A stretch of 32,651 nucleotides of DNA from Actinomycetota bacterium. Its GTDB lineage: Bacteria; Actinomycetota; CADDZG01; JAHWKV01. Location: positions 1-32,651 of the forward strand of contig JBDSRR010000257.1 in NCBI GenBank assembly GCA_039929185.1, written 5' to 3'. A program made the translations under genes and the position numbers. Under the pieces are notes generated by a model. The model did not search any database and was not told the origin of the DNA. It saw only the letters and a list, made by a program, of their open reading frames with translations. Shown piece after piece: positions 1,354 to 11,360 of this stretch. Numbering within the stretch: position 1 is the stretch's first letter; each line of letters begins with the position of its first letter.

Positions 1354-1881
1354 TTAGGGTTGGCGGTTGCGGCCGGACTTCATCATCATCCTCAGGTAAC
1401 CCAAACCGATCAGCCCGATCATGAGAACGAACAGAGCGACCATGATGAATGGGAAGTACTTCTGTGACGGAGGGGCCTCGGCCTCTTCCTCTTTCGCAGC
1501 GGCCTTAACGGCGGTGGGTGTGGCAGAAGCGGCTACCGTTGGAACGGGCTCCTTCGCGGCGGCAGCTAACACGGTGATCACACCTTTCATTTGATCCGGA
1601 TGAATGGTGCACTTATAGGCTATGTCGCCCGATCCGGTGATCACCACTTTCTCCTCATCGCCGCTGTTGAGCAGCGCCGTCTTGAAGGAACCATCGCTCG
1701 CGACGGCATTATGTGGAGCTTCGCCGGCGTTCTTGAAAGTGACGGTATCGCCAGATTCAATGGTGATCTGGGAGTCGACAAACTTAAAGTCTTGAGCCTC
1801 GACGGTAGTAGAGGCAGCTCCCGCGGGTAACGCTACGAGCGGCAGGATGAAACAAGCGAGCAAGATCAACTTCCGGCGCAT
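1354..1881 (-). CDS. Membrane-anchored type-1 copper protein (plastocyanin/amicyanin-like cupredoxin)
   Basis: Signal peptide MRRKLILLACFILPLVALPAGAAS. Cupredoxin ligand pattern: His in GEAPHN, then Cys-x2-His-x3-Met in YKCTIHPDQM. An Ala/Pro/Glu linker is followed by a C-terminal TM helix (FPFIMVALFVLMIGLIGLGYL). An AGGAGG Shine-Dalgarno sits just upstream of the ATG. Confidence 0.8.
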   Translation of the reverse strand: MRRKLILLACFILPLVALPAGAASTTVEAQDFKFVDSQITIESGDTVTFKNAGEAPHNAVASDGSFKTALLNSGDEEKVVITGSGDIAYKCTIHPDQMKGVITVLAAAAKEPVPTVAASATPTAVKAAAKEEEAEAPPSQKYFPFIMVALFVLMIGLIGLGYLRMMMKSGRNRQP

Positions 1882-3369: not shown

Positions 3370-3828
3370 TTACCCCTCAGAAATCTTCAACTTGCAGGCG
3401 CTTAAACCTTTTGGGATATGAAGAGTCGGGTTCGGGTTCGAAAGGCTGTTTTCGAATTCGGGTGCTTTGAGATTGACCACGGTCAGGGCCTCAGTGGTAA
3501 TCCTTTGTGTGCCAGTAAACGACTCCCCGCCCGCCTCGATCACGTATTCGATGACGGCGTTGAATCTGGCGGAGTCCTTACGCCTGATCGTTCCCCCCCG
3601 GATTTCAGGGGTGAACTTTCCAGCCTCCGGACCTTCACCTATAATCTCCGTCTCATTGCATCGAAAACGCCCTGTCTGAACCAACGAATCTTCGATCTCG
3701 ATGTTGACGGGAACAGTTGTACCTGTTTTTCGCAGCCCGTAAGCCCCCTGCTGTACCACCTTATCGAAGCGAACACAGCCCCCTCCAACGAGGACCAGAG
3801 CCAGGACAAGGGCGGTTAGGGGCCTCAT
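3370..3828 (-). CDS. Hypothetical lipoprotein
   Basis: 152 aa. Signal peptide with lipobox: MRPLTALVLALVLVGGGC. No recognisable family. Confidence 0.6.
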   Translation of the reverse strand: MRPLTALVLALVLVGGGCVRFDKVVQQGAYGLRKTGTTVPVNIEIEDSLVQTGRFRCNETEIIGEGPEAGKFTPEIRGGTIRRKDSARFNAVIEYVIEAGGESFTGTQRITTEALTVVNLKAPEFENSLSNPNPTLHIPKGLSACKLKISEG

Positions 3829-3943: not shown

Positions 3944-5107
3944 CTAGGTGGGGATACAACTGGGCGAAACTGCATCGCTCGGCGGAGTTGTCGTTGAAAT
4001 TCGCTCAAACTGGGTTTCGGCGAGGGTCCTTAGATCTTGGAGGGTCAAGCCAGAACCCGTCGTCGAACCGAGTAGAGCGAGAAATAAATCTCCGGACACA
4101 AACACCACGCCATGCGTCACTAGCGTTCCTTGGTCGTCTTCATCCGTTTGAGAAAAGGCCGCGCCGCCCGGAGGTGTTGTGATCTCGACTCGCTGCGCAC
4201 CAGTTCCTTCCAAAGATATAAGGGTGTCATCAAGATAGGCCTTGGCGCCCCGAGGCTCGGCGAATAGATAGACCGTGGCTACCACAACGTCTTCCGTCGC
4301 ATTTGTCCAGGCCTTCGCATACCCTCGTTGGAATTCCCGCGTGATCAACAGTGAGCGCTCTGCCTCGACATCGTCTTCTTCTGCTGCGGCGGCCTCGAGA
4401 TCGAGGGGGCCAACCGCGAAAAGGTCGGGGTCGGCGACGGCGAAACCGGCAAGGGCATCGTCGATGAGGATGGCGTCGAGGGAGTCATCGATGGGGGCCG
4501 GACACACCGCGGCGAAAGTGCTAGCGACGGGCAACGGCCGCGGCTTGGATGTCGATGCAGGTCGACATGCCGATAACAGCCCCGCAATGCAAAACGCTGC
4601 TACGACACCCGCTAATAGCCTGCGGGTCGTTCCACCAAAACTTTGAACACGACCCATACGAACGGCCATTGAACCTTGTACGCCCAAGGAGACGATCGCG
4701 ATGAGGCTCGCCCGCGCGAACCCAAATGCGGCGCCGACTATGGCGGATCGCTGCAGGCCTAGCGATGCAGAAGTCACAGCAAAGGCCCACCAAACCCACG
4801 TGTTAAGGATCGTAGCGGGACCGATGCCAAGACGAAGTCCATACAAAACAGCAGCGGTTTTCATTCCAAAAACCCGAGACCAAACCATCGGCACTTGCCT
4901 GCGGACCGCCAGCGGACGAAGCGGGGTTTGGTCCAAAACAACCGCAACGACTCCGATCGCAGATCCGGTCATAAGGGTTATCGAAAGACCCGTTAGGTCC
5001 CAAGCCGCACCCATAAGGGCCCCGGCCGTTGCTGCTGAAAACGTGCAGGACAGTAACAGCAATCCGGTCACGGCTATCTTGCTGCGCCCCCGCACGGAGG
5101 GGATCAC
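3944..5107 (-). CDS. Polytopic membrane protein with a C-terminal extracytoplasmic domain, unknown family
   Basis: 387 aa. The first ~180 residues form about 5-6 hydrophobic helices. These are followed by a Pro/Ser linker and a ~190-aa acidic soluble domain. GTG start. Same strand as, and 84 nt downstream of, the Cys-rich Tat protein gene. Confidence 0.6.
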   Translation of the reverse strand: MIPSVRGRSKIAVTGLLLLSCTFSAATAGALMGAAWDLTGLSITLMTGSAIGVVAVVLDQTPLRPLAVRRQVPMVWSRVFGMKTAAVLYGLRLGIGPATILNTWVWWAFAVTSASLGLQRSAIVGAAFGFARASLIAIVSLGVQGSMAVRMGRVQSFGGTTRRLLAGVVAAFCIAGLLSACRPASTSKPRPLPVASTFAAVCPAPIDDSLDAILIDDALAGFAVADPDLFAVGPLDLEAAAAEEDDVEAERSLLITREFQRGYAKAWTNATEDVVVATVYLFAEPRGAKAYLDDTLISLEGTGAQRVEITTPPGGAAFSQTDEDDQGTLVTHGVVFVSGDLFLALLGSTTGSGLTLQDLRTLAETQFERISTTTPPSDAVSPSCIPT

Positions 5108-5191: not shown

Positions 5192-6583
5192 CTAACGTCT
5201 TCTGCGTCGTCTTCGGCGTCGCGTCCTTCTCGTCCATCGACCTCGCGGGCGTGGCGGGGCTGGATCGGTTCCAAGCCGGGCCCTCCCCATCTCGCGCTCC
5301 GGAGGAGGTTGCGAATAGACGGGCAATCCTTGGCCCGCGACCCCGATCAACTTGTGTATCTCGAATCGATTAACTATCGACTGCAAAGACTGGTACGAGT
5401 CGGCATCGATGCCTTGAGTCCCGAACAAGATGACTCGCGAAACCCGGTCGCGAACCTCGAGGAGGAGATCTCGAACGCCAACCAGGGACCCAGGGTCGTG
5501 CACCAAAATGGGGCCGCCGAAACCGGCGAGTCCCCAAAGCGCTGGCCACCCCAAGGGCGTAAGCAACATCGTGCCAGTGGAAACTCCCATGCTCCTTGCG
5601 TGGGGAATCATGCGAGCAGAGATCGTGTGCAAATTTTCACCATCGATAACAACCGCACCCGGGAAGTCGCCTATACGGGCAGCCGCCTCAGGCCCGATGA
5701 GATACATGCCACCCCCAGCACGTGGTGTATCGGGCCCAACTATCAGCGGCATCTTCGCGGAAGAAGCAAAAGCCGAAGCTATCGGCGCAGCCGCCGCAGA
5801 CGAACCCGAGTTGGCGATGCAAACCACACTCCTGGCCCCGACGTTGTTTGCAACCCAGGCCGCAACCTCGCCCGAAAATGTTTCGACATCGAGGGCCACG
5901 CCGACTCTTTCGTTTGGTATCGCATGGTCTGTCAGTTGCTGATCTATCGAGGCAGGCAGATTCGAGCCAACGATCTTCACGCTCGGACCCCATCGCTGAA
6001 CGATCTGGGTGATGACGGATGGATCTAGATCTGCGCGCGGAACGAGGAAGACCGGCGCACCTATCACCCCGGCGAAAGCAACGGCGACTCCAGCGAATAG
6101 CCCATCAGAATCGCCGATAACGGCTTGCACGGCACCAATGGGAAAACGGGAATCGCGCGAATACAGTTCGATCTCTGCGACGTTATCAGTGCCCATTCGC
6201 GATATCGAAACTGTCTGCATCCTTGGGTCGGTGCCGCAACTTTCAACGATGCACTTGACGTTGGTCCCGGCGGGGCAATATCCATGAACGTTGGGATAGG
6301 CAGGAGCGCAGCAATCGCAGATCTTCTTCAGCAGTCCATCGGCACAACACCCCGTGGCATACCAGCACCATCCCCACACTTCATCGCAATCGAAGGTTGC
6401 ACACTTCGTCGAAATACCCGATTGACCACAAACCCTGGCTTCCGCATCGTCCACTAACAAGGTTGCGATAGTTGGTCCAGCCGCAACCAGAACTGCAGTG
6501 CGACCAAATTTGCCCATGAAAGAACGTCGCGTCATGCGCTCGGATGTCCAGCGGCTTGCCCGTTCTGCCCACTGATCGATCAA
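5192..6583 (-). CDS. Tat-exported protein: 12-Cys N-terminal domain + three cell-wall-binding (CWB2-like) repeats + poly-Arg C-terminus
   Basis: Twin-arginine motif TRRSFMGKF plus h-region AVLVAAGPTIATLL. Residues 52-116 contain 12 Cys. Residues ~125-440 form three repeats with the CW_binding_2 pattern (e.g. AVIGDSDGLFAGVAVAFAGVIGAPVFLVP...KIVGSNLPASI). The protein ends RGRWTRRTRRRRRRRRR. The TTG start overlaps the upstream stop (TTGA); the alternative ATG at 6535 gives MTRRSF... Confidence 0.8.
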   Translation of the reverse strand: MIDQWAERASRWTSERMTRRSFMGKFGRTAVLVAAGPTIATLLVDDAEARVCGQSGISTKCATFDCDEVWGWCWYATGCCADGLLKKICDCCAPAYPNVHGYCPAGTNVKCIVESCGTDPRMQTVSISRMGTDNVAEIELYSRDSRFPIGAVQAVIGDSDGLFAGVAVAFAGVIGAPVFLVPRADLDPSVITQIVQRWGPSVKIVGSNLPASIDQQLTDHAIPNERVGVALDVETFSGEVAAWVANNVGARSVVCIANSGSSAAAAPIASAFASSAKMPLIVGPDTPRAGGGMYLIGPEAAARIGDFPGAVVIDGENLHTISARMIPHARSMGVSTGTMLLTPLGWPALWGLAGFGGPILVHDPGSLVGVRDLLLEVRDRVSRVILFGTQGIDADSYQSLQSIVNRFEIHKLIGVAGQGLPVYSQPPPEREMGRARLGTDPAPPRPRGRWTRRTRRRRRRRRR

Positions 6584-7062
6584 GGCGCGGCCGTATCCAG
6601 ATACGACTCTTCGAGCATCACCTCAACCTGTTCGATCGTATTAGCCACACCTCTTACTTTGACGATGCCTTTTTGGTCTACAGCAACGAAGTAGGGGGTA
6701 GAGCGTACGTTGAATACCGAAAAAACATCGGCATTTGCGTCATCGTGGTCGATGCGATTCAACTGCACTTCGGGATACTGCCTAGTGAGACTTCTCAACC
6801 CAGGCTTTAGCGCATCGCAGATCGCGCAATTCGACGAACTGAACATCAACAGAGTGGTCTTGGCATCTTGATAGTTGAATCGGTCCGGCAGTGGGGCGGG
6901 CTTAAGCCTTTCGGGCCCTTCGCCGGCAAAATGAACGCCTTGCGGACGCAACCGGGCATGCAACACTCCTACTTGCCGCAACAGTGCGACAACGGTGAGG
7001 CCGAGAAGGATCACTGCTGCCCAAAGAGCGACATAAGACGCGACCCAAACCGACCCCGTCAA
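6580..7062 (-). CDS. Membrane-anchored thioredoxin-fold protein, MauD/TlpA-like thiol-disulfide oxidoreductase
   Basis: 160 aa. N-terminal TM anchor (VWVASYVALWAAVILLGLTVVALL). Thioredoxin-like domain with a CxxC motif (LLMFSSSNCAICDALKP). It overlaps both neighbouring genes by 4 nt. Confidence 0.75.
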   Translation of the reverse strand: MTGSVWVASYVALWAAVILLGLTVVALLRQVGVLHARLRPQGVHFAGEGPERLKPAPLPDRFNYQDAKTTLLMFSSSNCAICDALKPGLRSLTRQYPEVQLNRIDHDDANADVFSVFNVRSTPYFVAVDQKGIVKVRGVANTIEQVEVMLEESYLDTAAP

Positions 7063-7583
7063 GGCAAGACCTCCCCCGCAAGCGTGTTATCCCACACATG
7101 CCCCACCTGGATCTTAAGATCGACCAGGGCCACCAAAACCGTCCCAACCAAAAACACCGTCGAGGTGACGATGATGTCTTCTATAGACGGCAGGACCGGA
7201 GTGGAGAAATAACTGAAGACGGCCATACCGACTAGCAGCCCATTGCGGAAAAGATCGCTTCGAGAGATAGGTCTTTCGCTGAACCCTCCGAAGCAGGCGC
7301 AGGTAGCACCAGGTTCGAGATGCATGCCGCGTATAAGAACCACCGTGAACAACGAGATTACGATCGTCGACATCACGGCCCCCACTGGGGGCCGAAACAC
7401 TAAGAGCAGAGCAAGACCTAACTCGATCACCGGAACCGCTACAGCCAGCCGCTTGGCAAAGGGAAGATGCAGATTCGCCCAAGATGCAACGGTAACCGAC
7501 GGTCTGGATAGTTTGCCTATCCCGGCCGCAGCAAAGACGACCGCTAGTAGCAGCCCGGTGCAGTAACTAACGCCATTCAGCAT
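7059..7583 (-). CDS. MauE/DoxX-family redox-associated membrane protein
   Basis: 174 aa with four predicted TM helices. Pattern LLLAVVFAAAGIGKL ... VPVIELGLALLLVF ... LIRG...ATCACFGGF matches the MauE family, including its conserved C-x-C-F-G motif. Confidence 0.75.
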   Translation of the reverse strand: MLNGVSYCTGLLLAVVFAAAGIGKLSRPSVTVASWANLHLPFAKRLAVAVPVIELGLALLLVFRPPVGAVMSTIVISLFTVVLIRGMHLEPGATCACFGGFSERPISRSDLFRNGLLVGMAVFSYFSTPVLPSIEDIIVTSTVFLVGTVLVALVDLKIQVGHVWDNTLAGEVLP

Positions 7584-7599
7584 AGAGCTGGGATGAACC

Positions 7600-8247
7600 C
7601 TAACTCGACTCCATCGACGTGACTTCGACCTCGGCGAATCCGCCGATCAAGTTGAGTCCGCTGGGCAAATTGCGCACACTATTGACCGAGACCAGTAGGT
7701 ACGTAGTGAATCCGGGAGGTAGTGATTTGATGAGGGGAAAGTCTGCCCACGAGAGGTCGAAGTCGTAACTTCCGCTAGGGGGGCTGACTAGACATTTCTT
7801 CTGGACGATCGAAAACGTACTTAGATGTACGTAGGCGTTCTCGAGGCAGACTGTGTAATTCAATAGCCCTGCCTTGACCTCAATATGAGCCTTGTTCATA
7901 GTGTTCGTGGTACTCGAAGGCTTCTGAATGCCTGCGTAACTGCGATAAACGTATTGGGCCACGACTAAATGGCCGTTGATCGAAGCACCCACCGTAGTGG
8001 GCACGGAAACAGTCGGACCTGGGTAGTAAAGGGTGCAGCCATATCCCCCGCTGGGCACGAGACACTGGTAGTTGGTAATGCCGACGGGAGAGCCTGGAGG
8101 CAGGTCAATAAAGCAGCTAAAAAAGCCATCGACACAAGTACCGCCAACGCTGTATGGCGGGCCCGTTGGACTAGCCACTCCTCCAGACGGAAAGAGGGCC
8201 ATGATCATTGCCACCGAAATCGTTAGTAACCCTGCTCGCTTGAGCAC
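7600..8247 (-). CDS. Secreted 6-Cys hypothetical protein (first gene of the MauE/MauD cluster)
   Basis: I moved the start to the GTG at 8247, which is preceded by GAGAGAGGAAC. Signal peptide VLKRAGLLTISVAMIMALFPSGGVASP. Six Cys in the mature part. No family recognised. My hand count of 7621-7920 gives about 51% G+C, which looks lower than the neighbours. Confidence 0.55.
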   Translation of the reverse strand: MLKRAGLLTISVAMIMALFPSGGVASPTGPPYSVGGTCVDGFFSCFIDLPPGSPVGITNYQCLVPSGGYGCTLYYPGPTVSVPTTVGASINGHLVVAQYVYRSYAGIQKPSSTTNTMNKAHIEVKAGLLNYTVCLENAYVHLSTFSIVQKKCLVSPPSGSYDFDLSWADFPLIKSLPPGFTTYLLVSVNSVRNLPSGLNLIGGFAEVEVTSMESS

Positions 8248-8385
8248 CCGTGTTCCTCTCTCCCAGATTGGTTCCTGATTTGGTTCCAATGCCTACCACT
8301 TCGCCACGAAAGCCGCTTTTCCTGCTCACCTTGGCAAGAAAATTCGACACAAACCGGAAATTTCGCCAACAGCAAGCACGTTGGG

Positions 8386-8461
8386 TGGAGCCGGAGCGGG
8401 GAATCGAACCCCGGACCTACGGTTTACGAAACCGTTGCTCTGCCATCTGAGCTACCCCGGC
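8386..8461 (-). tRNA. tRNA-Thr (anticodon CGU), CCA encoded
   Basis: The reverse complement GCCGGGGTAGCTCAGATGGCAGAGCAACGGTTTCGTAAACCGTAGGTCCGGGGTTCGATTCCCCGCTCCGGCTCCA folds as a cloverleaf. It has a 7-bp acceptor stem (one G-U), a T arm CGGGG/TTCGATT/CCCCG and an anticodon loop TTCGTAA. Confidence 0.95.
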
Positions 8462-9523
8462 CGACTGATTCGATTGTAGTCGCAGCAGCACCGACTCGAC
8501 CGCCATGGTGGCATTGGCGTTCTCCCTTATGGCATTGCACGCGTTTGCGGACGCCTCGACCATCTCCAGCCATCGGTACGGGCTCATCTTCGTGGATGCT
8601 CGCGTGAGATCAGCCGTTCTGTCGGTTGCAATAAGGGCCTCCTCGGATGATCCTGACGAAGCTACGGCAAGATCTCTGAACCCGTCACCAAGCCATCCCA
8701 GGAACGAGATGTGAGCCTGTGACTCGGCCCTGCGCAACCCACGTTTATGACTATCCACCAGCTGTTTTCGGGGGCCTGCAGAGCCCCTGCCGCTTCCTGT
8801 GGCCTCATCGAATGCTTTGAGTTCTTCGGCTTGTACCTTCTCCGTCTCAGACTTGATCGCAGATACGATCTCACTCAGTTTTCCAATGTCCGCGAAAACG
8901 CTACGGATCGACAGCTCCGGGTGGGTAACGACATCGAGAGCCAATCGCCTCATGTCGCGTTCAGACCCATCCCCGGCAAGTGACATCGCGCGACTAGCGT
9001 CACCCCTCGCAACCCGAACCGTAAGCGCGGCGTCGGGGCCCGGAAGCAAAGCGAGCAGAGCCTCGTCTGACATCGCAGCGAACTCGATGACCTCACACCT
9101 AGACAAGATGGTTGGCAAGAACAGGTCAAGCGCGGCCCCCACCAAAACCCAAGTCACCGAAGGATTCGGTTCCTCAAGGGCCTTCAACAATGCGTTCTGT
9201 GACCGCTCCGCTATGAGGTGCGCTTCATTGATGATGAACACTTGTGATTTCGCCTCGATGGGTGAGCGCGCCGCGGAAGTAACCATGTCGCGGATGGTCT
9301 CAACGGGATAGGTGTACCCCTCCGGCTCGAACATATGCACGTCTGGATGAAGTCCCGCAGAGATGCGGCGACAAACCTCGCATGTTTCGCATGATTCGGG
9401 GCACAACATCGCGCTTGCGAGTCGGAGCGCCGCAAGGGATTTTCCCACGCCGGGCGGACCTACGAACAGGTATGCCCCGGACGTTGCACTCTTAAGCCGT
9501 TCTTCTAAGCGCGTATTACTCAC
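8417..9523 (-). CDS. holB: DNA polymerase III delta' subunit
   Basis: Walker-type YLFVGPPGVGKS, a Cys zinc module (CPESCETCEVCRRI), FIINEAHL...NALLKALEEP and TILSRC motifs. I set the start at the GTG at 9523, which overlaps the tmk stop by 8 nt. The longer track ORF (to 9787) overlaps tmk. The stop codon lies inside the tRNA-Thr gene. Confidence 0.85.
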   Translation of the reverse strand: MSNTRLEERLKSATSGAYLFVGPPGVGKSLAALRLASAMLCPESCETCEVCRRISAGLHPDVHMFEPEGYTYPVETIRDMVTSAARSPIEAKSQVFIINEAHLIAERSQNALLKALEEPNPSVTWVLVGAALDLFLPTILSRCEVIEFAAMSDEALLALLPGPDAALTVRVARGDASRAMSLAGDGSERDMRRLALDVVTHPELSIRSVFADIGKLSEIVSAIKSETEKVQAEELKAFDEATGSGRGSAGPRKQLVDSHKRGLRRAESQAHISFLGWLGDGFRDLAVASSGSSEEALIATDRTADLTRASTKMSPYRWLEMVEASANACNAIRENANATMAVESVLLRLQSNQSAGVAQMAEQRFRKP

Positions 9524-11360
9524 GAATGATCTCCTGGTCGATGAACGGCTGCAAGCGCAGCCTAACTTGAGCCTCCACTTCGTCAGGCGATCGCGATGCA
9601 TCGATAAGAGCGAAACGATCGGAATATCGCGATGCCATCGCGTGAAACGCTTCGCGAACCTGCTGATGAAACACAAGATCCTCGCGCTCGATGCGATCAG
9701 GAACTCCAGCCCGCTCAAGTCCCTCCGAGGCTTCGAAATCGAGCAAGAAGACGATGTCTGGAAGCAGTCCATCCGTGCCCCAGACATTCAGGTCTCGTAT
9801 CTCTTCTGCCCCCAACCCTCTGGCCACTCCTTGATACGCAACAGATGAATCGATGTATCGATCAGAGATAACGATCGCACCAGCTTGAAGGGCTGGCCTT
9901 ATCACTTGATCGACATGTTGAGCACGATCGGCTGCATACAGTAGAGCCTCAGCTTTTGGAGACATCGACGTGTTTTGAGGATCAAGGAGAAGTTCTCTCA
10001 CCGTATGGCCGATCCCAGTGCCGCCAGGCTCGCGCGTTACAACGACGTGCAAGCCTTGCGATCGTAGATAAACACACAACCGTTCTATCTGAGTAGTTTT
10101 CCCTGAGCCTTCCCCGCCTTCGAAAACCACGAAGGTTCCAGACCTGGTTGCCTTTACCCTAAACCGAGCGCGTATCGCCTGAGTAGTAAGCAACCCGGCA
10201 AGAAGTATCGAGACTCCGCCGGCCCACATGACTACACGCACGCCGCGAACGTCTATCGCTTGCTCCAACAAAAAGCGAGGGCGCTTTTCCAGCAGTGCAT
10301 CCACCAACCGCACTACAACCGGTGCCAGAGCCGCGGCTCCCACGACGGCCAATCGGATCAATGTGTTGACCGCCGCCAGGATGCGTCCGCGGACTTCTTC
10401 CTCAACTTGCTCTTGAACCAGCGCGTAGCCAGATGGGTATGCGAACCCGCCAAACAAACCAGCGATGGCCGCCCAAACCAAGGCCGTAGTGATGGTCGAC
10501 ACGCTACCGAAAACGATCATCGATAAACCCAGTGCACCCACCACTACAGAAAACAAGACGTCCTTGGGGACGAATCGCGAGACGCCACCGGCCAATATGA
10601 ATCCTGACCCAAGGCCGATGCCCACTGCCGTGATCAAGAAACCAAAACTCGCCGGACCTCCACCCAAAACGTCAGCCACAAAGAAGGGCGCGATGGAGAT
10701 GAAGATGCCGATGCCTGCAAAAGTTCCAAATATCCCAAGAACCCAGGGACGGATCATCGCGTGATTCCACATCGCGCTAAGGCCCTGCATGAGTTCAGTC
10801 CATACGACCTTCAGATTGAGGCCGCGCTTAACTTCAGGACGCGCTGGAATGATCAGCGTCAACGTCAACACAGCACTGATGAGAAACGTCCCGGAGTCAA
10901 CGAACAGTGCAAGGTTTTCTTGATCGATCGCAAGCCGGAACACCCGAGAGATGTGGGCAAGTAATCCGAAAGCGGCACCAGACAAAGGGAAGGTCAGATA
11001 AGCGCCAAGTAGCAGCAGTGAATAAGCGTGCGTCAACTGATGACGCTTGACCATCGCAGGAACACTCGCGTCCTTGGCTGGCTGCCACATCAGCGTGAGG
11101 ACCTCGAGCCCAGACGACACCAACAACAAAAGCACGACCGGGTTTAGCAAGGGAATCGCCTCGCTAATGACTTCGGCGAAAGGCAAGGTGGCGATAAGGC
11201 AAGCCCGGCCGATATCGCACAAGACCATCACCTTCTTGCGGCTCCATCGGTCGGCCGCTACCCCTGCCGCCGGCCCGAACAACAACGCTGGGGCGAGTCG
11301 TGCAAGCAAGACCGCGGCAACCGCGAACTCGTCGTCATAGATGCGCTTAGCCACTGACAC
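9516..11360 (-). CDS. tmk: Fusion protein: MFS-type transporter domain + thymidylate (dTMP) kinase domain
   Basis: The C-terminal ~205 aa (about 9516-10135) carry FVVFEGGEGSGKTTQ (P-loop), TREPGGT and DRYIDSSVAYQG, which identify Tmk. The N-terminal ~400 aa form multiple TM helices of MFS type. Conserved MFS N-terminal sequence continues upstream of 11360 without a canonical start (see findings), so the 5' end is uncertain. Confidence 0.85.
   Translation of the reverse strand: MSVAKRIYDDEFAVAAVLLARLAPALLFGPAAGVAADRWSRKKVMVLCDIGRACLIATLPFAEVISEAIPLLNPVVLLLLVSSGLEVLTLMWQPAKDASVPAMVKRHQLTHAYSLLLLGAYLTFPLSGAAFGLLAHISRVFRLAIDQENLALFVDSGTFLISAVLTLTLIIPARPEVKRGLNLKVVWTELMQGLSAMWNHAMIRPWVLGIFGTFAGIGIFISIAPFFVADVLGGGPASFGFLITAVGIGLGSGFILAGGVSRFVPKDVLFSVVVGALGLSMIVFGSVSTITTALVWAAIAGLFGGFAYPSGYALVQEQVEEEVRGRILAAVNTLIRLAVVGAAALAPVVVRLVDALLEKRPRFLLEQAIDVRGVRVVMWAGGVSILLAGLLTTQAIRARFRVKATRSGTFVVFEGGEGSGKTTQIERLCVYLRSQGLHVVVTREPGGTGIGHTVRELLLDPQNTSMSPKAEALLYAADRAQHVDQVIRPALQAGAIVISDRYIDSSVAYQGVARGLGAEEIRDLNVWGTDGLLPDIVFLLDFEASEGLERAGVPDRIEREDLVFHQQVREAFHAMASRYSDRFALIDASRSPDEVEAQVRLRLQPFIDQEIIRE

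Follow-up and report, generated by a model that had tools for sequence, protein, structure and literature searches.

A conserved Actinomycetota gene cassette of MauE-, MauD- and MauF-like proteins with a Tat-signal, 12-cysteine protein carrying cell-wall-binding repeats

Gene organization of the locus

Contig JBDSRR010000257.1 of the Actinomycetota bacterium assembly GCA_039929185.1 (32,651 nucleotides, analysed at its full length and called the window below) carries five co-directional open reading frames (ORFs), g1 to g5, all on the minus strand. Here we describe four of them, g2 to g5, as a conserved cassette in which a MauE-like, a MauD-like and a MauF-like protein accompany g4, a cysteine-rich protein with a twin-arginine translocation (Tat) signal. 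The first-pass annotation of the window had taken g1 to g4 as an orphan mau-like module, and these four ORFs are present on the minus strand where it placed them. The five genes are as follows.

g1: 7600-8289, or from the likelier GTG start at 8247, minus strand; six cysteines and an N-terminal hydrophobic signal
g2: 7059-7583, minus strand; MauE-like membrane protein of 174 amino acids (aa), proposed DsbB-like disulfide generator
g3: 6580-7062, minus strand; MauD-like thioredoxin-fold protein of 160 aa, proposed disulfide carrier or isomerase
g4: 5192-6583, minus strand; 463-aa protein with a Tat signal, 12 cysteines and CWB2 (cell-wall-binding) repeats, the proposed client
g5: 3944-5107, minus strand; 387-aa protein with a MauF-like membrane domain and a C-terminal domain

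The g2/g3 and g3/g4 junctions both read TTGA, in which a TTG start and a TGA stop overlap by 4 nt, just as had been claimed for the last three genes of the module. Homologues conserve a leader region that matches the 16 residues gained with the TTG start of g4, which supports this start. The gap between g1 and g2 is 16 nt, and that between g4 and g5 is 84 nt. The g5 gene, which had been overlooked, belongs to the unit as its fourth conserved gene.

The place given to the 6-Cys protein g1 in the module was lost. A search of a 5.8-billion-protein index returned no homologue of g1 but itself, there was no Pfam match, and the position 5' of MauE varies between genomes. As an orphan in the homologue search, g1 was rejected as a component of the system. 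It is a predicted secreted protein of 215-229 aa, a lineage-specific orphan, and it occupies the position of a propeller-like or CWB2 protein in other genomes.

Conservation of the cassette across genomes

When each GTDB species was represented by one genome, 113 species proved to have a relative of g4, and from them we fetched 80 loci with 8-kb flanks. All 80 loci come from metagenome-assembled genomes, assigned to the Acidimicrobiales/Acidimicrobiia, the Egibacteraceae, the Euzebyales or unclassified Actinomycetota, with one labelled Acidobacteria. More than 395 relatives of g4 are present in metagenomic Actinomycetota, none of them named. When only loci in which the contig leaves room were counted, a MauD-like gene was found directly 5' of the g4 homologue in 76 of 76 loci, a MauE-like gene 5' of it in 71 of 71, and a MauF-like gene 3' of it in 72 of 72. 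The order MauE-MauD-client-MauF-like is kept wherever the contig allows a check.

The neighbourhood survey thus bears out the expectation that the MauE/MauD adjacency is kept in relatives. The first-pass annotation had staked its idea on this adjacency together with a MauA-like fold in the Cys-rich head of g4; the adjacency was found to be conserved, and the head showed no relationship to the MauA fold. Because the synteny is complete, a dedicated pairing of MauE/MauD with g4 is strongly backed. The claim that MauE and MauD are dedicated to a Tat-exported, 12-Cys CWB2 protein without a heavy chain or MauG therefore holds in its synteny part, but has to be given up for g1 and for the MauA fold. 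We consider it probable that g2 to g5 form a dedicated, leader-linked oxidative-folding cassette (MauE-like, MauD-like, client, MauF-like) for a wall-anchored disulfide-knot protein, derived from the maturation of the mau small subunit.

Alternatively, the MauE-like and MauD-like proteins could be a general pair equivalent to DsbB and DsbA, with g4 merely an abundant neighbouring substrate. Gonzalez et al. (bioRxiv 2026, 10.64898/2026.03.05.709764) found that MauE homologues can replace DsbB in E. coli, described the MauE active site as CXC followed by Phe-Gly, and proposed MauD as the DsbA-like partner of MauE; only the homologues from Caldithrix and Desulfatibacillum are known to have the DsbB-like activity. 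In the same preprint, MauE is the second commonest DsbB-like protein and is termed a generalist, and about 90% of MauE-bearing species have no MauA, all of which would suit a general pair. The word 'orphan' in the first-pass annotation is apt in that no dehydrogenase genes lie nearby, but MauE without MauA is commonplace according to that study. The genes 5' of the cassette, which are variable secreted proteins, some with cysteines (six in g1), also fit a general pathway. On the other hand, the four-gene synteny is complete across Actinomycetota classes, the start/stop overlaps couple the genes, and stand-alone relatives of the g4 head occur in the same cassette; moreover, a MauA-type leader and a MauF-like protein have been retained, neither of which a general pathway would need. 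We regard the general pair as unlikely, although it is the alternative to be taken most seriously, and keep the dedicated oxidative-folding cassette as the preferred reading.

The gene 5' of MauE is variable: in 14 loci its product is a propeller-like repeat protein, and 5 loci have a CarboxypepD_reg+CWB2 protein there. The propeller-like protein (L001, 6169-7014, and 13 more loci, e.g. L009, L014 and L018) is about 280 aa long and secreted, has five or six repeats of about 40 aa (GYWLVASDGGVFAFGDA.F.GS) and no Pfam match, and lies directly 5' of MauE, which is the mauB position in canonical clusters. It was rejected as a MauB analogue, since it had no significant blastp match to MauB (E=0.25) and is absent from the window. 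In another locus (L003, 1949-2131), the MauD-like gene before a 5'-shortened g4 homologue is reduced to a C-terminal remnant of 60 aa; the remnant adjoins a low-complexity ORF, and this copy of the cassette may be decayed or misassembled.

The canonical reference cluster was mauFBEDA-amicyanin-JGMN from Paracoccus versutus plasmid pTAV3. In tblastn searches, MauB, MauG, MauJ, MauM and MauN of P. versutus found nothing in the 32.6-kb window at E<=0.1, and MauB, MauG, MauJ, MauM, MauN and amicyanin found nothing in the 80 loci with their 8-kb flanks at E<=1e-3. A Pfam scan of 26 window ORFs (at least 130 aa, including most of the long ones) gave no mauB or mauG match. The statement that the cluster has no mauB or mauG is thus extended to the whole window and to 8 kb around the cassette in 80 loci.

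The MauE-like and MauD-like proteins

The g2 protein matches Pfam MauE (PF07291) with 72.5 bits (cutoff 27, E=5e-20) and Pfam DoxX with E=4e-6, and its active-site motif is C-A-C-F-G. All 74 MauE-like orthologues of g2 in the comparison carry CXC[F/L]G. The description of g2 as a MauE/DoxX-type membrane protein with a C-x-C-F-G motif was therefore correct, the Pfam match being above the gathering score.

The g3 protein has a thioredoxin fold according to Pfam, an N-terminal transmembrane (TM) helix and the CxxC motif CAIC; of its 79 MauD-like orthologues, 78 have CxxC. The nearest NCBIfam model is MauD TIGR02661 (E=5e-19, 68.5 bits). In blastp, g3 is 33% identical to P. versutus MauD over 177 aa (E=2e-25), and the alignment takes in the N-terminal anchor region and the LRQVG.LH motif. 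The anchor, the CAIC motif and the full-length homology to MauD agree with the earlier reading of g3 as a TM-anchored CxxC MauD-like thioredoxin.

The proposed client protein g4

The g4 protein can be divided into the following parts.

Leader, residues 1-49: 6437-6583, minus strand; MauA-type twin-arginine leader with n-region, hydrophobic core and predicted cleavage site AEA↓RV
Head, residues 50-121: 6221-6436, minus strand; 72 aa with 12 invariant cysteines, proposed to form six disulfides
Three tandem CWB2 repeats, residues about 126-425: 5309-6208, minus strand; matched by family profile and by structure
C-terminus, residues 426-463 and stop: 5192-5308, minus strand; P-x-x-E-R-x-x-G-R-A-R part and arginine-rich tail

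All 12 cysteines lie between residues 52 and 116, a span of 65 residues, and the twin-arginine signal reads TRRSFMGK, so that the 12-Cys Tat-signal protein is as it had been described. The head runs RVCGQSG...DPR, and its motifs GWCWY, LKKICDCC and GYCP are invariant. In the g4 family alignment of 58 sequences, which was also the input for the AlphaFold2 model, the mean column identity is 78% in the head versus 44% in the body; all 12 cysteines are invariant, and two Trp positions beyond GWCWY are at least 90% conserved. A head so nearly invariant suggests a specific ligand or partner. The full-length relatives aligned have even numbers of cysteines, 12, 14 or 16, and in P0209 two Cys positions are jointly replaced. 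These even counts and the paired loss favour disulfides over metal ligation.

AlphaFold2 predicts the head as a three-stranded beta mini-domain, with a predicted local distance difference test (pLDDT) score of 82 when modelled alone and 88-97 inside the full-length model. The mature head had no profile match in the PDB, and a Foldseek search with the head model found no neighbour. The full-length model has a mean pLDDT of 89.6 and a predicted template modelling score (pTM) of 0.84.

The three cell-wall-binding repeats claimed for g4 are clear by family profile and by Foldseek, but not by a single-sequence Pfam scan, which gave no domain at E<=0.1, CWB2 included; a single-sequence PDB search gave nothing useful either. 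The g4 family profile matched Cwp6 (5j72, E=1.4e-18), Cwp8 (5j6q, E=1e-12) and the high-molecular-weight (HMW) subunit of SlpA (about 3e-8) in the PDB. Foldseek matched the AlphaFold2 model to Cwp6 (5j72_A, E=1.2e-12) and to the H chain of SlpA (7acx_D, E=7.9e-9), and the matches to 5j72_A and 7acx span 340-425 columns, in line with the pseudo-trimeric fold of CWB2 modules. By analogy with these Clostridioides difficile proteins, the CWB2 repeats of g4 may bind a secondary cell-wall polymer.

Near the C-terminus, the family has a near-invariant motif, GQGLPV.xQPxxERxxGRAR, the GQGLPV part of which lies at residues about 414-422. The invariant or near-invariant columns are G398, G401, G403, L404, P405, V406, Q409, P410, E413, R414, G417, A419 and R420 in the numbering of a 447-aa form, to which 16 is added for the numbering of the 463-aa protein.

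The leader of g4 and its relation to MauA

The g4 leader reads T-R-R-S-F-M-G-K ... AVLVAAGPTIATLL ... AEA↓RV. This fits the Tat-substrate pattern of an S/T-R-R-x-F-L-K motif with a hydrophobic stretch and an A-x-A site after it. R19 and R20 are invariant in the g4 family, and an n-region of the form D..(V/A)E...R..A.R is conserved before TRRSF. In hhalign, the g4 leader matched the leaders of MauA and AauA with a probability of 97.9% (E=6.6e-13). A hidden Markov model (HMM) of the leader only gave 24-43 bits with the leaders of MauA and AauA and no more than 10 bits with ten other Tat leaders used as generic controls. On sequence grounds, the likeness of the g4 leader to those of MauA and AauA is specific and not a generic Tat resemblance.

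When the leader was included, the g4 profile matched the precursor of the methylamine dehydrogenase (MADH) light chain in the PDB (3c75_L, E=8e-6), whereas with the profile of the mature head none of the MADH chains of the PDB was hit at E<=10. The mature g4 head and mature MauA align in hhalign with a probability of 2.6%, with only ICDCC...CPxGT common to both, and g4 has no Pfam match to Me-amine-dh_L (PF02975) at E<=0.1. Aligned to 3c75_L by HMM, g4 has the Ile of CIVESC at the position of Trp57, which with Trp108 (Paracoccus numbering) forms tryptophan tryptophylquinone (TTQ), and it has no counterpart of the Trp108 region of MauA. A MauA fold had been considered from the weak match of g4 to MauA TIGR02659 (21.3 bits, cutoff 196.85) and was rejected when the split into leader and mature part placed the signal in the leader. 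The resemblance to MauA noted in the first-pass annotation therefore survives for the long leader and not for the mature Cys domain, which has neither the MauA fold nor the TTQ tryptophans. It appears that g4 has the leader of TTQ light chains in common with them, but not their catalytic domain.

The Cys- and Trp-rich head could also bear a cofactor or cross-link, such as a quinone like TTQ or cysteine tryptophylquinone (CTQ) or a Cys-Trp thioether, or else a metal cluster, and g4 would then be a wall-bound redox enzyme or electron carrier, with MauE, MauD and MauF taking part in cofactor maturation as they do in amine dehydrogenases. Consistent with such a role are the invariance of GWCWY and the two further conserved Trp positions, Tat export, which is typical of cofactor proteins, and a leader common only to the light chains of TTQ dehydrogenases. 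The window also has a cupredoxin gene 3.3 kb downstream of the cassette (1354-1881, minus strand; Pfam Copper-bind, E=9e-11), whose product resembles the amicyanin of Paracoccus weakly (25% identity; E=6e-8 against a small database). However, the Trp57 position is occupied by Ile, and the half of MauA that contains Trp108 is absent; neither the window nor the 8-kb flanks of the 80 loci revealed a MauG, a flavoprotein, a radical-SAM enzyme or a heavy chain; and the head has no ferredoxin-type CxxCxxC spacings, while its even Cys counts fit disulfides. The cupredoxin was not found near the cassette in the 80 other loci and, not being syntenic elsewhere, was rejected as an amicyanin partner. The earlier statement that there is no amicyanin partner is thus right in that none is conserved near the cassette. 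Taken together, these results make a cofactor-bearing head highly improbable, and we continue to read the head as a disulfide knot folded by the cassette.

The MauF-like protein g5

The g5 protein consists of two domains.

Membrane domain, residues 1-185: 4553-5107, minus strand; polytopic, MauF-like by hhalign to MauF
C-terminal domain, residues 186-387: 3944-4552, minus strand; variable, extracytoplasmic, after a lipobox-like LLSAC

No Pfam or NCBIfam match was found for g5 when 19 members were scanned, and a search of 5.8 billion proteins gave unnamed relatives only. The invariant core of the g5 family is RQVP..W...F.P...LYG.RLG.GP.T..TW.WW, and the counterpart of this core in MauF is the region of the RAQVP...F-P...LYG-LSLG motif. 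Profile-profile alignment in hhalign of the g5 family with MauF (five sequences, that of P. versutus plasmid pTAV3 and four more) gave a probability of 94.8% (E=5.1e-8, 126 columns), and alignment with a single MauF sequence gave 81% (E=1.2e-5). True MauF has an N-terminal GGLLSTWSPCGYSS motif with a Cys that is invariant in the five MauF sequences. The g5 family aligns only from about residue 112 of MauF on, and its membrane domain has no conserved Cys. From these alignments, the membrane domain of g5 is a distant homologue of MauF.

Members of the g5 family are either short, at about 123-190 aa, or long, mostly at about 370-509 aa, with few between. The short forms (about 185 aa) have no C-terminal domain, and the long forms have it; in blastp, g5 matched the 387-aa protein of locus L001 over its full length and the 185-aa protein of locus L004 in the N-terminal domain only. 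In many long forms, a lipobox-like sequence (LLSAC, LAGCS or AALSACG) follows the last TM helix and is followed by a domain of about 200 aa.

Stand-alone relatives of the cysteine-rich head

A profile search of 1.8 billion representatives found short stand-alone proteins of 120-160 aa that have the g4 leader and Cys pattern and a mature part of about 70-100 residues. The same search also reached, at E=5e-4, P0238, which is divergent but a true Me-amine-dh_L protein (Pfam E=6e-10). These sequences suggest a continuum of leader-sharing Cys-rich proteins. Two stand-alone relatives, P0207 and P0212, lie in cassettes of the order MauE, small ORF, [MauD-like], client, MauF-like. Of the two, only the P0207 locus (L085) yielded a MauD-like gene; the stretch that separates the small ORF from the client in the P0212 locus (L086) showed none. 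The small ORF is conserved, encodes 58-61 aa and lies directly 3' of MauE (L085, 3461-3637; L086, 774-959), and in L085 it separates MauE from the MauD-like gene. The g4-type cassettes do not have it.

Small proteins of this kind raise the question of a ribosomally made, post-translationally modified peptide (RiPP) or a defensin-like line, in which the leader guides modification of a Cys-rich core, the knot is released or displayed, and g4 is a wall-tethered version. In 2020, decRiPPter flagged MauE/MauD beside precursors with at least eight cysteines as candidate RiPP clusters in Streptomyces (PMC7794033), and the size of the stand-alone relatives would be compatible with this. However, g4 itself is a folded protein of 463 aa with a normal Tat signal-peptidase site, no gene for a dedicated protease, for transport or for immunity belongs to the four-gene cassette, and the head is near-invariant across species, unlike typical antimicrobial cores. 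A RiPP-like product is thus highly improbable, and oxidative folding of a wall-anchored client by a dedicated cassette remains the reading that we follow.

On the megaplasmid of Thermomicrobium roseum (NC_011961.1, 476850-487131; locus L094), several Cys-rich ORFs, unannotated or annotated as 'methylamine dehydrogenase light chain', adjoin a MauE/DoxX fusion protein of 597 aa as well as a sigma-70 factor. T. roseum is not known to be a methylotroph, and this locus may be another use of MauA-like proteins outside MADH.

Other genes in the window

An ORF of 152 aa 3' of g5 (3370-3828, minus strand) has a lipoprotein-type signal, LVGGGC; it had no Pfam match and was not found in the related loci. 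The cupredoxin gene described above adjoins a gene for a zincin-like peptidase (333-1349). Upstream of g1, positions 9516-11360 (minus strand) hold one ORF of 614 aa with a domain resembling transporters of the major facilitator superfamily (residues 13-340) and a thymidylate kinase domain (residues 413-598). It overlaps the long ORF of a DNA polymerase III delta-prime gene (8417-9787), the true start of which is probably further downstream.

Discussion

We propose that the cassette descends from the part of mau clusters that serves small-subunit maturation and now has a different client. The g4 protein would be made with its 49-residue MauA-type leader and exported by the Tat pathway, with cleavage probably at AEA↓RV. 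On the outer side of the membrane, six disulfides in the 72-residue head would be formed or shuffled by the anchored MauD-like protein (CAIC); the MauE-like protein would reoxidise the latter via CXC-FG and hand the electrons on to the quinone pool, in the way that DsbB serves DsbA. A third obligatory helper would be the MauF-like protein, perhaps as a scaffold or holdase through which the leader-bearing precursor is coupled to MauE and MauD. The three CWB2 repeats would then dock the knotted head non-covalently on a secondary cell-wall polymer. From the sequences, we infer that g4 contains disulfides and binds to the wall, and likewise the topology, the direction of electron flow and the role of the MauF-like protein.

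Several points weigh against this proposal. MauE is reported as a generalist, and its adjacency to g4 could reflect a favoured rather than an exclusive substrate. Tat export of a domain that is oxidised only after export would be unusual. The score of g3 against TIGR02661 is far under the equivalog cutoff (68.5 vs 188.6 bits), and because it is below this curated cutoff, g3 is taken as a homologue of MauD and not as an equivalog. Likewise, g5 has no counterpart of the invariant N-terminal STWSPCGYSS motif of true MauF, and for this reason we call it only 'MauF-like'. Finally, because the fold of the head has no structural neighbour, the assumption of six disulfides draws on Cys parity and context.

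The components of the cassette are all of known kinds: MauE, MauD, MauF, a MauA-type leader and CWB2 repeats. Their combination is new, as is a client that is not a dehydrogenase and is wall-anchored; it is also new that MauF accompanies MauE and MauD outside methylotrophy and that the MauA-type leader marks a wider family. In the literature, we found no paper that describes the g4 protein family or the cassette.

Knockouts of MauF, MauE or MauD, known since the 1990s, reportedly abolish the small subunit of MADH, and among the three only MauE has recently been assigned an activity, which is DsbB-like. The cassette keeps all three helpers and the leader while the TTQ enzyme is swapped for a 72-residue Cys knot on a wall anchor, which makes it a cleaner system for probing the role of each helper and of the leader as a recognition element. 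More speculatively, the n-region of the leader might act as a recognition tag that draws a MauF-MauE-MauD complex to the Tat exit, and the Actinomycetota, perhaps with the Thermomicrobia, might hold a class of leader-guided, disulfide-knotted mini-proteins; we put this forward as a tentative idea that is more likely wrong than right. If it is true, these mini-proteins would be free, membrane-tethered or wall-anchored, and the maturation of the MADH light chain would be one specialised offshoot. A new Cys-Trp cross-link or cofactor in the GWCWY/CC head is a further possibility.

The g4 proteins define a widespread family of surface proteins, which comprises at least 395 clusters and occurs in 113 GTDB species of the Acidimicrobiia and of Nitriliruptoria-type lineages, and in which CWB2-type wall anchoring is combined with Tat export outside the Firmicutes. 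We know of no cultured model among the groups that carry the cassette, and to our knowledge their envelopes are poorly known.

Comparison with known systems

The closest known system is the mau cluster of Paracoccus and Methylobacterium. Both have homologues of MauE, MauD and, distantly, MauF, both keep the E-D-client order, and the client of both has 12 cysteines and a long twin-arginine leader. Unlike the g4 cassette, whose hosts are Actinomycetota, the mau clusters belong to Pseudomonadota and include MauB, MauG and MauJ/M/N, none of which was found within the g4 loci searched. The mau client MauA is a Me-amine-dh_L protein with the TTQ tryptophans, whereas g4 is neither of that family nor equipped with these residues, but is fused to three CWB2 repeats. 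The mauF gene precedes mauB in the mau cluster, while the MauF-like gene follows the client in the g4 cassette; MauF has the WSPCGY motif, which g5 does not.

In its body, g4 has the triple CWB2 wall-anchoring module of C. difficile Cwp6, Cwp8 and SlpA HMW, with the same fold and a sequence identity of just 12-15%. The functional domain of the C. difficile proteins is an enzyme or an S-layer domain, and they are exported by the Sec pathway; in g4 the corresponding part is the 72-aa Cys knot, and the protein is exported by Tat and has an oxidative-folding operon of its own. The stand-alone relatives resemble the Streptomyces class found by decRiPPter (PMC7794033), in which mauE, with or without mauD, lies beside a small Cys-rich precursor and no other mau genes are present. 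Those clusters are uncharacterised predictions, for which a MauA-type leader, a MauF-like gene and a CWB2 fusion have not been reported.

Finally, the g2 protein shares with the MauE proteins of Gonzalez et al. (10.64898/2026.03.05.709764) the CXC-F-G motif, the MauE Pfam family, a thioredoxin-fold partner and the absence of MADH. Those proteins were described as generalists; the MauE-like protein here, in contrast, is in a fixed operon with one client and a MauF-like gene, which points to a client-specific cassette.

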